From Balanoglossus misakiensis (taxonomy: Eukaryota; Animalia; Hemichordata): DNA of 64,000 bases. Of this stretch, positions 13,755-53,126 are shown piece after piece. Every line of letters begins with the position of its first letter. Position 1 is the first letter of the stretch. The notes below the pieces were generated by a model that had not been told where the DNA came from, made no database searches, and worked only from the letters and a program-made list of their open reading frames with translations. The stretch lies in contig CM082595.2 of assembly GCA_040954595.2 (NCBI GenBank), positions 6,748,193-6,812,192 on the forward strand, written 5' to 3'. A program made the position numbers and the translations under genes.

Positions 13755-15611
13755 TTAACTTTCGTCATCCTCATCTTCATCTTCATCCTGGTTGATCTGG
13801 AAGTAACGGAGTTCGTAGGTCTCTTTGTTGGACGCCACCACACGCAACCAATCTCTCAGGTTGTTCTTCTTCAGGTACTTCTTGGTCAAGTACTTCAGGT
13901 ATCTGAAAATTGAACATAAGATTTATTCAAATCAGTATAGAGTATGCACTTTTCTAACACTCTAAACAAGTTTTAGGGAGTTTTAAAAAAAGAACTCCAT
14001 GAACTTGATAAAAAGTAAATTAATACGCAAAATCAAGGAGTACCACAGATAAAAAATTCTGAAAGGCATTATCCATAATTATATTATACCAGTATATTGA
14101 TGGTGTAAATCACACTATTTTATTGGTCGAGACACGACCCATGACTGTGATATATTCGTCATATATCACGCAAAACTCATAGTCAAAGAAAATGCCTTTT
14201 TAAAATGTTTTATGCAAAGTTTCAATATACTGGTATAATATAATAGCAATAAAACACCCCCAGCCGTGGTATACCACTCGATTTTGACCAGTTCAACTCC
14301 ATATACGCACTCGCTATCGCTCGTGCGTATATGTCGTGAACTGGTCAAAATCTCGTGGTATACCATGGCTGGGGGTGTTTTATTGCTTAAATGGTTACTC
14401 TTTCTTATTTTCCAGATTTCAATTTTGCAAATCCACAAACCTTTTCGAGAAGGAAATGTCAGCCTGAACAATGAGCTTGCTCTTGTTCCGTTCAATGGTC
14501 ACATGGTTGCCAAGGTTACTAGTCTTGCCATCCACCTTGATCCTGTCATGCAAGAACTGCTCCTGTTGCATCAAGGGAGGAGAAAAGGGGATATTGGTAC
14601 AAGGTTAGGGAAGGTGGCCCTAACCCAACCAGGGAAGATAGCCCTGTTCATTTTGCTAGGGAAGATCACCCTAGTCTGTACCGAACTAGGGAAGATAACC
14701 CTAATTCACAAAGACAGGATTAATAACTTGCAAAGGAAATAACCTCAATGAAGTTAACCTTTTAATGCACATTGCAAGTGTATAATTTTAATAAAGTATA
14801 TTTCTGTCATTTTTACCAATGGTTCTTTCTCAATAAATATGCTTGAAAAAAAATTAAATACCACACATTACTTTTATCCAGCCTTTCGCATAAATTTCAG
14901 GCTTTTCTAAAATAAATCCAATTTATAAAGAAGCAAATTTCCACAATCAAATGTGATCACTTACAAAGTTATTGGCGTCCATGATGCCATCTTCAACAGG
15001 ATGGGCGCAGTCAATGACAAACTTAAAAGTTTGCTTCTTCTTTTTGCCTTTGCTGACTGGCTTGCCTTTTTTCTGATGAAACAAAAAAGCAAACGTCTTC
15101 CTTGAGTGACAATATTTGACAGAAGGCACCTGTCCACTATCAAGGTTATTTCACAGGTCCCCCTTTCCCCTACCACTGTCATGGCCATACCACGTGGTGT
15201 TTCGCAATATGGCCACCCTTGTTACAGGATAGGCGTCACGTCACACGCCATGGATGTCACAATATCGCCTAGCTGCAGTACCGTAGCTAAAGGTTTTCTA
15301 TTCCGATCCAACCGACGAACAGGGAAAAAAGAAATAGAGCGTACGGTACTGCAGCTGGCGACCAACAAGATGCAATTAATGCACACCAAGCATCACGTGG
15401 TCTCGGCCTACCAGCTTGGGCGAATTTCCGTACCCAGTTGTATAAAATCCCGTTTTAACGACTAAATTACCAATTATATTTATTCTTCACAGCTCAGTGT
15501 CATATTGAATAACTTAAAAACAACATGGTTTCATCAAAGGCTATATTTCACAGTCAAAAGAGCGAAAAATCAACCAGATATTCAGAGCAGCGTGAAACTT
15601 ACTACTGGCAT
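13755..15611 (-). CDS. RPL22: 60S ribosomal protein L22 (eL22), 128 aa
   Basis: Exons 15611-15603, 15072-14965, 14562-14441, 13902-13755 (387 nt) give [57 protein letters not shown]...[58 protein letters not shown] on the minus strand at ~13687. Confidence 0.97.
14081..14241. mobile_element. MITE-like element with 20-bp TIRs (RPL22 intron 3)
   Basis: ATATTATACCAGTATATTGA ... TCAATATACTGGTATAATAT. Confidence 0.7.
14245..14387. mobile_element. Near-perfect palindromic MITE (RPL22 intron 3)
   Basis: AGCAATAAAACACCCCCAGCC.TGGTATACCAC ... GTGGTATACCATGGCTGGGGGTGTTTTATTGCT folds back over almost its whole length. Confidence 0.8.
14603..14703 (-). promoter_or_regulatory. Array of four stem-loops in RPL22 intron 2 (putative RPL22-binding splicing-regulatory element)
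   Basis: On the pre-mRNA: UAGGG-uuaucuu-CCCUA, CUAGGG-ugaucuu-CCCUAG, CAGGG-cuaucuu-CCCUG, GGUUAGGG-ccaccuu-CCCUAACC. The structure is seen directly; the function is inferred. Confidence 0.7.
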
Positions 15612-25505: not shown

Positions 25506-26603
25506 TCATCCCTCGTCTTCTCGAAGCGACTTCACTTCTTCTGACGTCAGTCCGTCCTCTTTGGGCTGTTTTTTGCTGTCGCTGTTCTTCTTGCAGCTGG
25601 ATATCGCGACCACGACGGATCCCAGCACAACGACACCGGCACCGGAAAAGTCAAACGGTGTTAACGTGTATTTAAATAAGAACAAGTCGGAGAGATAGGA
25701 CACCACGAGTTGGATGTTCGAGAGAAGAGCGACGGTCGCCGCCGTTTCCAACTGCAGACTCTTATACCGCGTCCAGGTGCTGAAAAGCGTGCTGACGCAG
25801 ACGACGAATAAATAGCAAATGACGTTCGCATCCAAGTCCCACTTGGGCTGACCGACGAAGAACATCAGCACGCAGTTCATCAATGCCCCAACTACGCTGT
25901 TGTAGAACATGATCGCGTACACGTTCACCCGTCCACGAACCGCCCGTCCGATGATGTACCCTGCCGAGATGCCGAAAACGGACAGCAAAGTGAGCATATA
26001 GGCCATAGTTTCACTTCGACTCGGGGCTGTGTGCGCCGGAGCCAGGAACTCCGGTCTGGTGATGAGCAAGATGCCTACTGCGTTGAGCAGGGCGGCGGTC
26101 ACCTCGGCGACCCGGCAAAATTCTTTCAGGCACAGACACGCCAGCACGGCCGTTACTATGGACAAGGTACCCTGTATGATTGCGTTGATGTTGCCGAGGG
26201 GGGCCATGGGGAGCGCGTAGAGGAGGGCTATCGAGGCGACCGTTCCCACGGCCCCGTTGCCGACCAAGGCCAGCCGGTCCTTCCACGTCTGAAGACGCAG
26301 GTCCACCTGCTTGTACAGTATGAACGGCACCACCGTCGCCGTTCCCACCACCCCGGTCAGGAACTTGATCTGGTACTGCGTCACGCCCGCCCGCTGGGCG
26401 AACACGATGAAGACGGCGCTGACGGCGTACGAGATCCCGCTGAGCAGGGCGAGCGATACGCCGAGCGCGGAATCGATGCAACGGAGAATCGGACCGGGAG
26501 ATCTTCTCCTCTTCTCCGGGTGGGTGTTCCAGCTGAACAAATCGTCGTCGTCCGCGGAATCGTATTCGTGCCAAACCCGGACCAAGCTGAACGGCTGGTC
26601 CAT
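25506..26603 (-). CDS. Solute carrier family 35 member G-like (EamA/DMT superfamily) transporter, intronless CDS
   Basis: Long GC-rich ORF with about 10 hydrophobic segments in two EamA-like repeats (YALPMAPLGNINAII...LACLCLKE; GILLITRPEFL; SLQLETAATVALLSNIQLVVSY). First ATG is at 26603; the ORF is open to a GTG at 26687. Confidence 0.85.
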   Translation of the reverse strand: MDQPFSLVRVWHEYDSADDDDLFSWNTHPEKRRRSPGPILRCIDSALGVSLALLSGISYAVSAVFIVFAQRAGVTQYQIKFLTGVVGTATVVPFILYKQVDLRLQTWKDRLALVGNGAVGTVASIALLYALPMAPLGNINAIIQGTLSIVTAVLACLCLKEFCRVAEVTAALLNAVGILLITRPEFLAPAHTAPSRSETMAYMLTLLSVFGISAGYIIGRAVRGRVNVYAIMFYNSVVGALMNCVLMFFVGQPKWDLDANVICYLFVVCVSTLFSTWTRYKSLQLETAATVALLSNIQLVVSYLSDLFLFKYTLTPFDFSGAGVVVLGSVVVAISSCKKNSDSKKQPKEDGLTSEEVKSLREDEG

Positions 26604-29344
26604 GCCAACGCCGATCGACGTCGGAGACAAAAAACGCGAGGCAAACGGAATCACTCGCGATCCAATGTAATGAATTCCGCCAGGCACGACGATTTTTCAC
26701 TTAAATCCATTGAAAATCAATGCTGAACAACCGTGAATGCATTATTTATGACGAAACAACTTAAAAATATGCGATTCGTCGACTCTCCTTAGACATAATT
26801 ATCATATTCGTTTTGTTGTTACACTGATGAACAAGTATATGAATTTAATTGTTTCCGGTGAAATAAAAATATTCAATACCAAGGATCACCAGACACGCTT
26901 TTACCGACAAAAGATTTTGGTAAGAAAAAATATTCAAGCTTGGAAAAAAATTATGCTGCATTGACAAAGAAACCGGGACGTTTTCTTGGGAGTTTAGGAT
27001 ATTTTCAAGCCCGTTCGAAGAAACAAAAGTCATATTTTGAACATGCCAATAAAATTATGCCCGACAGGACCTCTTAGAGCGAGCGTATCACTCGTGAGTT
27101 ATCTGCGAGAGGAACTCTCACCGAATAAGATATTCCAAATCTAACGCGATGATGCAGCACTGCACGTCATCAACTCGACTGATGACTTTTTTTTCCATTA
27201 TTGAATCCATCATCCGCAAAGTCTGGAATTTTGCGCGAAAACAAGAAATCGTAATAACGTCGGTGATATATGGGAGTAAAACAAAACACCTTATCGGCTG
27301 GAATGGCTCCCCTTACCCTAAGCATGTACCCCCTGACAATCAATCATCCCCAAGAACTGTGAATAATTAATAATATGAATCAGTATTATGAACAAACAAA
27401 AAACCCAAATTTCTCTCGAGAGTTCGGTGCAGACAAGAGGGCGGAGAGGACGTTCCCGGCGGGAGGATGTTAACGAACCTGTAACATTTCTCAAATCCCA
27501 TGTGTCTTATCAAATTTTAATAAAAGCAATTCCTGAAATGTATAAACTACACACGCACTGAAACATTACACATTTTTGGGGATCCCACTTTCCGCTATTG
27601 CAATGCGACGCACGGCATTTTCGTTCACATTACTTGGCCGTTTTAAAATTCTACTGTGCTTTTTTCGGTCGATAAATCAACAATGAAGTGCATTTCTGAT
27701 GTGGTCATCTCAGAAAGAAATGTCTACTTTTTTCAGGAAGGATGAATTTCGCGTTTTCATGTCTCTCTCTGCGATGCGTGATGATGTCAATTGTACTCGG
27801 CCGTCAACAGATGCTCATCCGTTGGGGGAAAGGGCCGGAATAAGCTGAAAAAGACTTTTCTGGTCTGGTCCGTAAACTAACCATTGCGTTTGAAGAATTT
27901 GCTACAGAAATATTTTCTAAATGAACTGGTGTTGGCTGATGTAGTCTTCCATTGAAATTGCCAAATTATTTGTATAAGATAAAGCCATTCAAAAATCATC
28001 GCTTATCACGCACTTAGTGATTTTTGTAATCGAGTATTTTCGATTACCGTTTTTAATGGTCTTGAGTCAATTATATGAAATATACACTGCCAGCCATGGT
28101 CTATGATGCTTTTCCAAGAAAGTTTGTCTAATTAAAAAACACCAGGATGACGTAAACGGTTATGATTTAGAATATCGACTGGTTTTCCCGAAATAAACGT
28201 TCGTGAAAACAATCACTCGGTTGTATTGATTTTGGTTTCCAAGGTGATCGATGTGTATTCCAAAAATTAACTAAAACCATTTGCGTGAAGACTTTTTAAG
28301 AATAAGGGATCGAAATTTCGATAGTCCGCATCCGGTCTTTACGCCTAATTGGATTTTTAAACGTTGTACTTTTCAGTTAATGATGGTTTTAACACAAGAG
28401 AAGCGTGGTACGTTCCTTAAACACTTAACTGTCACAGAGAATGATATGCGCATTTTAGCAACTTGTTTCAAAGTAGCCAGGACATTCAGTGCATATTGAT
28501 CATAGCAGGTTTAGTCTTTTCGCCACCACCAATATCATCATCATCAAATATACGTGTCGATTTCGATTTTACTAAACGTCCATTATTCCATCGACCGCTG
28601 GCAAGTTTGGTCGAATGTTATTCATGTTAACAATTTTGTGATATTAATGATTAACGACACTGTAACGATCAATCCTTATGTAAACGCAAGTTTTCTAAAG
28701 TCACTTCTGATCGAATGTACTTTTAGGATACCGGATAGACGCAAAGATGCATTGTCTTCTACTATAATAGCGCCAGAGTACTTTTACCTCGTCAATTTCC
28801 ATCTTTATGATTATGTGAACCACGCATTCCGTAGTTGTTCTGTTTATCGATCTATTTAGACCTGGAGAAATCATACTGCAGGGACGAAACGCGATTACAA
28901 GAAACGCTTGGTGTGTGTGTGTGTCTTTTTTAAATGACGGTTTTTAAGCCGGTGCAGGGTCAGCGATAATCCCTGCGCACCACCCCACTTCTCCAACCGG
29001 GGGTCGCACACCCGACTCACCTTGGCATCTACACGTCGCTGGGGATTTCCCGTAAACTAATGTCCTTCAGAACCATGTCGCACATAATCCGGCGGTCGTA
29101 TAAGTGAACCCCGGCGAGAGTTGCAGACGACACTTAGTGTCAAAACTAACAAAGTCTATCCATCATTTATCAGGCCAGCTCTTGCGGGGATTTTCTAGAG
29201 AAGAGCACAATTAAGCTTTTATGTTGTATTTCTTCAACCGGGGTGACCTCTTCGGTGTCTCAACGGACGGGATTCAGAACATTAAAGTGAATGAATATTA
29301 TTCTCTAATTTAGGAAATTCCTGTCGTTGCCGTCCTCGTGCTTA

Positions 29345-44703: not shown

Positions 44704-53126
<8,423 letters not shown>

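Follow-up and report, generated by a model that had tools for sequence, protein, structure and literature searches.

The closest described system is that of human RPL22L1, where intron 2 has an alternative 3' splice site (exon 3A, or variant 3) under the control of RPL22 (bioRxiv 2024.08.15.608201; bioRxiv 2023.12.29.573614; PMC12035866). According to the available text of bioRxiv 2024.08.15.608201, variant 3 has 64 residues, depends on RPL22 and is stabilised by NMD inhibition, and RPL22 is bound at two stem-loops in intron 2; the excerpt of PMC12035866 gives 63 residues for the human alternative form, and its CLIP data are without an RPL22 peak on RPL22L1. A branch-point mechanism is not named for this switch in the available portions of these three sources. 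The site that L22 binds is given as a stem-loop closed by a G-C pair, with a loop of 5-7 nt ending in U, in the excerpts of bioRxiv 2023.12.29.573614, PMC3750023 and PMC2668802, and the loop length is given as 5-9 nt in that of PMC4838235.

In the case of yeast RPL22A/B a protein of the same family binds its own intron, productive splicing falls and NMD follows (PMC4838235 and PMC13630204, in excerpt), and in this the yeast genes resemble the locus discussed below, for which binding is predicted. The yeast element differs in being a long alternative-fold switch without a consensus hairpin, described in the excerpt of PMC13630204 as an allosteric switch with a conserved 23-nt element and alternative pairing partners, and in stalling splicing after branch-point recognition; the available parts of the two papers describe no poison 3' acceptor, and that of PMC4838235 leaves the conservation of the autoregulation open.

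Two other systems are relevant, each known to us from part of the source. In the L10ARE system of RPL10A/rpl-1 (PMC4937301) the choice of splice site in a ribosomal-protein pre-mRNA is switched by its own product, by way of an element kept across animals, but these are 5' splice sites and the element is a single one of 39 nt, and the eight C. elegans genes in the text available do not include rpl-22; the same paper proposes that paralog cross-regulation descends from autoregulation. In intron 6 of MDM4 (bioRxiv 2023.12.29.573614) tandem motif hairpins bound by L22 alter splicing and mutation of the motifs abolishes the effect, but there the hairpins follow the 5' splice site, the outcome is exon skipping and the gene is unrelated.

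We describe here a tandem array of four hairpins that closes intron 2 of an RPL22 gene, within a stretch of 64,000 nucleotides that we refer to, as a whole, as the window. The array is a real and deeply conserved regulatory element, which appears from its sequence to work like the RPL22L1 exon 3A switch, yet lies outside the RPL22L1 clade. As in the human switch (known to us from the excerpts above), the intron is the orthologous one, stem-loops with the L22 motif overlap an alternative acceptor, and a premature stop and predicted NMD follow. In contrast to human RPL22L1, the host is an invertebrate RPL22 gene, so that self-regulation is predicted and not repression of a paralog; and there are four hairpins, the last with a CCCUAAC arm, and an in-frame stop at codon 5, where RPL22L1 has two hairpins and CCCUAG. 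Searches of the open-access literature listed no paper that describes the invertebrate array or the burial of a branch point.

The host gene

The gene is on the minus strand, has four exons and is an eL22/RPL22 gene of the invertebrate type, with its ATG at 15611. Its parts are as follows.

15603..15611, minus strand: coding part of RPL22 exon 1 (MPV), with a pyrimidine-rich leader ahead of it (from the sequence)
14965..15072, minus strand: RPL22 exon 2, 108 nt (Pfam PF01776)
14563..14964, minus strand: RPL22 intron 2, 402 nt, GT..AG, phase 0 (position the same as that of RPL22L1 intron 2)
14441..14562, minus strand: RPL22 exon 3, 122 nt (Pfam PF01776)
13755..13902, minus strand: coding part of RPL22 exon 4, with the KKYLKK RNA-binding cluster and a normal stop (Pfam PF01776)

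Exons 2, 3 and 4 each separately match the Pfam family Ribosomal_L22e (PF01776), the KKYLKK cluster, a motif named in the excerpt of PMC3750023, is intact in the protein, and exon 4 is apparently the last exon. The closest named protein is Branchiostoma RPL22 (81% over 101 columns), with which it forms no supported clade in the protein tree, and in that tree of 103 columns it falls outside the clade starred as RPL22L1. By tree placement the host gene is not RPL22L1, the vertebrate paralog that RPL22 represses in trans, and the sequence suggests an invertebrate host, which may be a deuterostome.

The window has other elements that we record here. Intron 3 of the gene contains, at 14245-14387, a near-perfect palindrome of 143 nt with 51-nt arms (94%), which is MITE-like and present as a single copy in the window; all of its miRNA matches in Rfam are below threshold. 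Directly adjoining it is a 167-nt element (14078-14244) with perfect terminal inverted repeats of 23 nt. In intron 1 there is a perfect 15-nt inverted repeat pair at 15271-15356, which sits inside a looser pair with copies at 15176-15202 and 15388-15414. Elsewhere, an intronless frame of 396 codons (25506-26696, minus strand) resembles EamA/SLC35G transporters, its Atlas clusters being commonest in Chordata, and an intronless frame of 334 codons (48949-49953, plus strand) resembles, by eye, a rhodopsin-type GPCR.

The hairpin array

The hairpins, all from the predicted fold, are as follows.

14683..14707, minus strand: hairpin 1, loop 14698-14692, with UAG/G in the 5' arm (the slash marks the splice position) and UAG in the 3' arm
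14656..14674, minus strand: hairpin 2, 6 bp, 7-nt loop ending UU
14630..14646, minus strand: hairpin 3, 5 bp, 7-nt loop ending UU
14602..14626, minus strand: hairpin 4, 8 Watson-Crick pairs and a G-U pair, loop 14617-14611; its 5' arm is GGGUUAGGG and its 3' arm CCCUAACC

All four fit the published L22-binding motif: each has the G-C loop-closing pair with G on the 5' side of the Dobbelstein-Shenk motif, and each has a 7-nt loop ending UU. The cores have the form AGGG-N7-CCCU, at 14702, 14672, 14645 and 14621, and this form is absent from the rest of the window. On a strict test (G-C closure, a loop of 5-7 nt ending in U and five Watson-Crick pairs) intron 2 has four hairpins, whereas among 1000 dinucleotide shuffles 925 have none, 73 have one and 2 have two; with both strands scanned, the array is the sole cluster of four strict motif hairpins within 150 nt in the window. 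The loose motif GG-N4-6-U-CC is weak as evidence, with five seen against a mean of 0.95 and a maximum of 5 in 300 shuffles. The region folds at z = -3.3, and no Rfam family matches the array. Binding of eL22 to these hairpins is predicted from the motif.

On the minus strand at 14733-14746, upstream of the upstream branch motif described below, there may be a fifth hairpin of the motif in degenerate form, with 4 bp and a loop of 6 nt whose last base is U. In the predicted fold of the window 14600-14596 also pairs with about 14683-14679 (minus strand); this further helix encloses hairpins 2-4 in a multibranch junction and would bury the branch region further.

Orthologous introns and covariation

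Orthologous introns were sampled from metagenome contigs by a pattern covering the acceptor and the start of exon 3, with no hairpin presupposed. This gave 110 loci, 80 with a flank of up to 1500 nt and 30 with up to 300, which together with the window form 53 groups. Hairpins are present in the orthologous intron in 53 of the 110 fetched loci, and with the window counted 54 of 111 sequences have the core motif within the final 200 nt of the intron. Over the 53 groups it is found 53 times in the 9,616 nt of these intron ends, compared with four times in 93,013 nt of other DNA of the same strand. The hairpins sit at the 3' end of the intron between the ...NF and E...FL parts of the protein, as in RPL22L1.

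Placement of the loci is by a protein tree of few columns, and on that tree bearers group with stony corals (L005, L020, L090), ascidians (L024), Helobdella (L066) and bivalves (L082, L094); the L001 set lies near Helobdella with weak support. The vertebrate bearers L040, L055 and L078 sit in the starred RPL22L1 clade, the only class here for which regulation has been shown, and the hairpins of the window align with theirs. Bearers with no placement on the tree (L009, L017, L032, L047, L081, L083 and L087) are probably animals. There are 28 groups without an array. These include the insect-like L010, L019, L021, L027 and L059, the unplaced L006, L089, L016 and L068, and vertebrate RPL22 (L031, L037); the other 17 are in two long-branch clades with no named relative and are, as judged from their sequences, probably not animal. 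Thus the hairpins are carried by vertebrate RPL22L1 and are absent from vertebrate RPL22 and from the insects sampled.

Some loci are unusual. L008 has two hairpin copies, 532 and 442 nt upstream of exon 3 and about 90 nt apart, and a degenerate copy near the acceptor, and the clade of L008, L087 and L047 may have a different hairpin layout. Exon 3 of L037 is that of a fish-like RPL22 copy whose reading departs near the end, possibly because it is a pseudogene or through an assembly error. For statistics by lineage, 23 groups were merged into 16 lineages, with L078 (no intron) and L008 (distal copies) excluded.

For covariation we used a hand-made list of 36 of the 41 hairpins with 7-nt loops, 35 of them distinct, five near-duplicates from the L001 set and the corals having been dropped. 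The outer stem covaries. In the alignment 89% of cells pair, both sides change in five of the nine pairs, and the covariation score is 0.317, as against 0.158 in shuffled alignments (0 of 500 reaching it) and at most 0.14 with slid partners; the hairpins were chosen on their GGG/CCC core with the outer pairs unselected, and kinship of the sequences can inflate the score. The loop-closing G-C is invariant in the 35 distinct hairpins, which were selected on the core. If the requirement for U is dropped from the search, U is still the last loop base in 53 of 54 cases, and all 41 of the 7-nt loops end UU. With the inner AGGG/CCCU and the final UU of the loop invariant, and the five inner pairs hardly varying, the sequence is constrained as well as the pairing. 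The pair that includes the branch A discussed below is U-A in 17 and C-G in 13 of the set, and since this position is almost always one or the other, U-A there may in part reflect avoidance of AG near the acceptor.

A predicted poison acceptor and its branch motif

The signals at the upstream end of the array are as follows.

14719..14723, minus strand: UUAAU, predicted to be the upstream branch motif, with A14720 as branch nucleotide and the poison acceptor 20 nt away (motif in 12 of 16 lineages)
14701..14703, minus strand: predicted poison 3' splice site UAG, which would extend exon 3 by 138 nt (homologous to the L078 junction)
14686..14688, minus strand: in-frame UAG, codon 5 past the poison acceptor and 245 nt upstream of the exon 3/4 junction (from the reading frame)

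Nearly all 5' arms read YAG/GG, which is an acceptor. In the window the AG is at 14702-14701, and UAG/G at 14703-14700 aligns at the sequence level with a junction in L078, a vertebrate RPL22L1 locus (L078:629-1008, minus strand) that is intronless, 98% identical to mammalian RPL22L1 and has a 67-nt extension of exon 3. Alone of the 110 loci, L078 has an exon-2 end with no GT after it, exon 2 being joined instead to the GG that follows the poison AG. Its origin may be a transcript of the poison isoform or a retrocopy, and its frame gives 34+30 = 64 residues, equal to the 64 reported for human variant 3. We had entertained the 3'-arm UAGs of hairpins 1 and 2 as cryptic acceptors, but dropped them as the L078 junction indicates the AG of the 5' arm.

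In 12 of 16 lineages the AG of the first hairpin, or of the sole one, has a YURAY 14-22 nt ahead of it with no intervening AG; this holds for 12% of 866 other AGs in the same loci, two of nine middle hairpins and one of 13 last hairpins. There is no scored upstream branch motif in L066, L083 and L087, but in L083 by eye, and in L081 as scored, it is UACUAAC. In the corals a better branch motif precedes the AG of the last hairpin, so that there a single hairpin bears both signals.

Use of the poison acceptor would bring in a stop at codon 5 for 17 of the 23 groups. Either a stop or a frameshift would result in 22 of them, the exception being L020, where the acceptor of the first hairpin is in frame with no stop. 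The stop falls at codon 5 (the UAR or UGA of the 3' arm) because the intron is in phase 0 and GG, seven nucleotides and CCC make four codons. In the window the 138-nt extension reads GYLP-stop, which predicts that the poison form is an NMD target.

The productive acceptor and a predicted buried branch site

The signals at the downstream end are as follows.

14604..14610, minus strand: CCCUAAC in the 3' arm of hairpin 4, predicted to be the productive branch site, with A14605 (-43) as branch nucleotide (from sequence, fold and comparison)
14573..14590, minus strand: polypyrimidine tract of the productive acceptor, predicted unpaired (from the fold)
14563..14565, minus strand: productive 3' splice site CAG (from the sequence)

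In the initial annotation the 3' arm of hairpin 4 was seen as a consensus branch site with its A at 14605, 43 nt from the acceptor, followed by an AG-free pyrimidine-rich tract up to CAG, and on the minus strand we find the same, with the tract at 14590-14573. The A is in a match to yUnAy (consensus from the excerpt of PMC2367711), and the last AG ahead of the productive acceptor ends at 14620. The hairpin was also called the strongest, with 8 bp; it does have that many Watson-Crick pairs, but hairpins 1 and 4 tie at -12.6 kcal/mol. In the predicted fold A14605 is paired with a probability of 0.98. Within the last 150 nt of intron 2 the only matches to yUnAy are at 14605 and at 14571, the latter being too close to the acceptor at -9. 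The position of A14605 at -43 is beyond the 21-34 nt range in which 83% of human branch points lie (PMC2367711, in excerpt); of 20 groups, 15 have the homologous A at -24 to -39 and the other five have it at -43 to -83. Another branch motif of similar quality, at least 15 nt from the acceptor, is present in one of 20 groups (L032, at -35), and L066 has a competing CUAAU whose distance to the acceptor, about 13 nt, is below the 15-nt cut-off.

The comparison with other hairpins is informative. U-R-A is in the 3' arm of the last hairpin in 11 of 11 invertebrate lineages with at least two hairpins, as against one of nine middle hairpins (p=7e-5) and five of 11 first hairpins (p=0.012), p-values that treat related lineages as independent and concern a motif defined after the loci were seen. 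It is also present in three of four single hairpins. The base after the branch A is a pyrimidine in just 9 of 13 lineages. Downstream of the last hairpin one AG is seen where 11.6 are expected, and between hairpins 12 where 16.9 are expected (13 lineages), so that AG exclusion begins at the last hairpin. L017 retains the branch A although it is mismatched against C.

Two classes depart from this pattern. In L024 the sole hairpin ends CCCUAG; there is an AG at -37, and a branch motif lies separately at -22. In vertebrate RPL22L1 (L040, L055, L078) the last hairpin ends CCCUAG with no branch motif. A buried U-R-A is thus not required for the switch, as it is missing in vertebrate RPL22L1, which is regulated. 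For the window we consider it likely, from sequence and comparison, that the true productive branch point is the one buried in hairpin 4. The proposal in the initial annotation that RPL22 bound here would hide the branch point and give negative feedback is plausible, given the fit to the L22 motif, the covariation, the U-R-A in all 11 lineages and the AG exclusion, but the form of the output is better described otherwise, as discussed below.

A probable switch between two 3' splice sites

We suggest that the four-hairpin array is probably an autoregulatory switch between two 3' splice sites, in which A14605 is hidden and splicing is diverted to the poison acceptor. When free RPL22 is scarce the short stems would open and leave A14605 free to pair with U2, so that splicing would go to the CAG at 14563 and give full-length mRNA. 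Free nuclear RPL22 would bind the stems and hold them shut, making A14605 in hairpin 4 unavailable, and the more accessible A14720 would then be used with the next AG, the UAG/G at 14701. Exon 3 would in that case gain 138 nt and the GYLP-stop, 245 nt before the last junction, and the mRNA would go to NMD. In the window the predicted cost of opening is 7.7 kcal/mol for the buried branch site and 3.5 for the upstream one, and the buried site is the costlier in all 14 groups scored for both. The poison AG is itself in a stem that costs 11.7 kcal/mol to open, and the preference for it under bound RPL22 is not explained by the model. Occlusion is not the only mode of action of this protein, since in yeast Rpl22 lets the branch point be recognised and stalls splicing afterwards.

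It could instead be that the upstream branch point, A14720, serves both acceptors. On that account the folded array would shorten the distance and hide the AGs between the acceptors, bound RPL22 would be a roadblock beyond which scanning from the branch point does not pass, so that the first AG is taken, and CCCUAAC would not be a branch point. Such a mechanism accounts for choice of the first AG, covers vertebrate RPL22L1 and L024, both without U-R-A in the last hairpin, and fits the strong conservation of the upstream motif, up to the UACUAAC of L081 and L083. There are also no AGs predicted to be unpaired between the acceptors in 16 lineages, but in this the linker AGs do not stand apart from G-containing dinucleotides in general (0 of 12 are unpaired, and 11 of 120 of the others), and with this control we rejected hidden linker AGs as proof of scanning from the upstream branch point. 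The linear distances of about 60-200 nt, the depletion of AG in the tail but not in the linkers, and the retention of the branch A in L017 despite its mismatch all speak against a single branch point, which we think unlikely.

With regard to the output, the initial annotation had RPL22 hide the branch point to give retention of intron 2 or skipping of exon 3, with no alternative acceptor. Its reading of the consequences is correct: the retained intron reads ...NNFVSDHI and then stops, after five codons, and skipping of exon 3 shifts the frame. Retention could be a side product, and in yeast Rpl22 autoregulates by inhibition of splicing and NMD of the pre-mRNA (PMC4838235, in excerpt). As the main unproductive product these forms are not supported: the upstream branch motif, the acceptor in hairpin 1 and the L078 junction indicate an alternative 3' splice site, the conserved upstream motif and the invariant AG of the 5' arm would be left unexplained, and the known vertebrate output, from the excerpts available, is an alternative acceptor. 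The stop after skipping lies in exon 4, apparently the last, so that the product would not be a classical NMD target. We regard retention or skipping without an alternative acceptor as quite improbable, and the output is likely to be the alternative 3' splice site with NMD. Least probable of all, and in our view very much so, is that the repeats are sites for another factor, or relics, with no RPL22 feedback. Silencers of the hnRNP A1 type have UAGGG(A/U), and telomere-like repeats TTAGGG/CCCTAA. The arms GGGUUAGGG and CCCUAACC of hairpin 4 are compatible with such an origin, as is the constraint on the sequence of the five inner pairs, but C follows UAGGG in 28 of 47 hairpins, the stem covaries, the 7-nt loops end UU in 41 of 41 cases, and the motif is limited to this intron end in the DNA examined.

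Returning to the switch between two acceptors, a broader reading is possible, which we put forward tentatively and at slightly less than even probability. A palindrome of 25 nt would bear three signals: the YAG/G acceptor in its 5' arm, the L22-binding loop, and in its 3' arm a CUAR, which in the first copy would be the in-frame stop and in the last copy the branch point. Such a unit would be the RPL22 switch of the common ancestor of corals and bilaterians, acting by occlusion of a branch point clamped by protein, which after the vertebrate duplication was kept in RPL22L1 and lost from RPL22, and was lost also from the sampled insects. On the same reading, its being kept in the one vertebrate paralog and lost from the other would give the one-way repression of RPL22L1 by RPL22.

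Implications

The consensus YUAGGG-N7(UU)-CCCUAR is much sharper than the loose published motif, and we suggest that it be used in seeking other eL22 targets. Repression of RPL22L1 by RPL22 is of importance in cancers that are MSI-high and for how cells respond to Pol I inhibitors (bioRxiv 2024.08.15.608201, PMC12035866, in excerpt). How the hairpins switch the acceptor, and where the circuit came from, are not addressed in the parts of the RPL22L1 literature consulted on these points, and the comparison made here yields a testable model with two branch points. The array is also a concrete example of how an ancestral autoregulation can be passed on as cross-regulation between paralogs.
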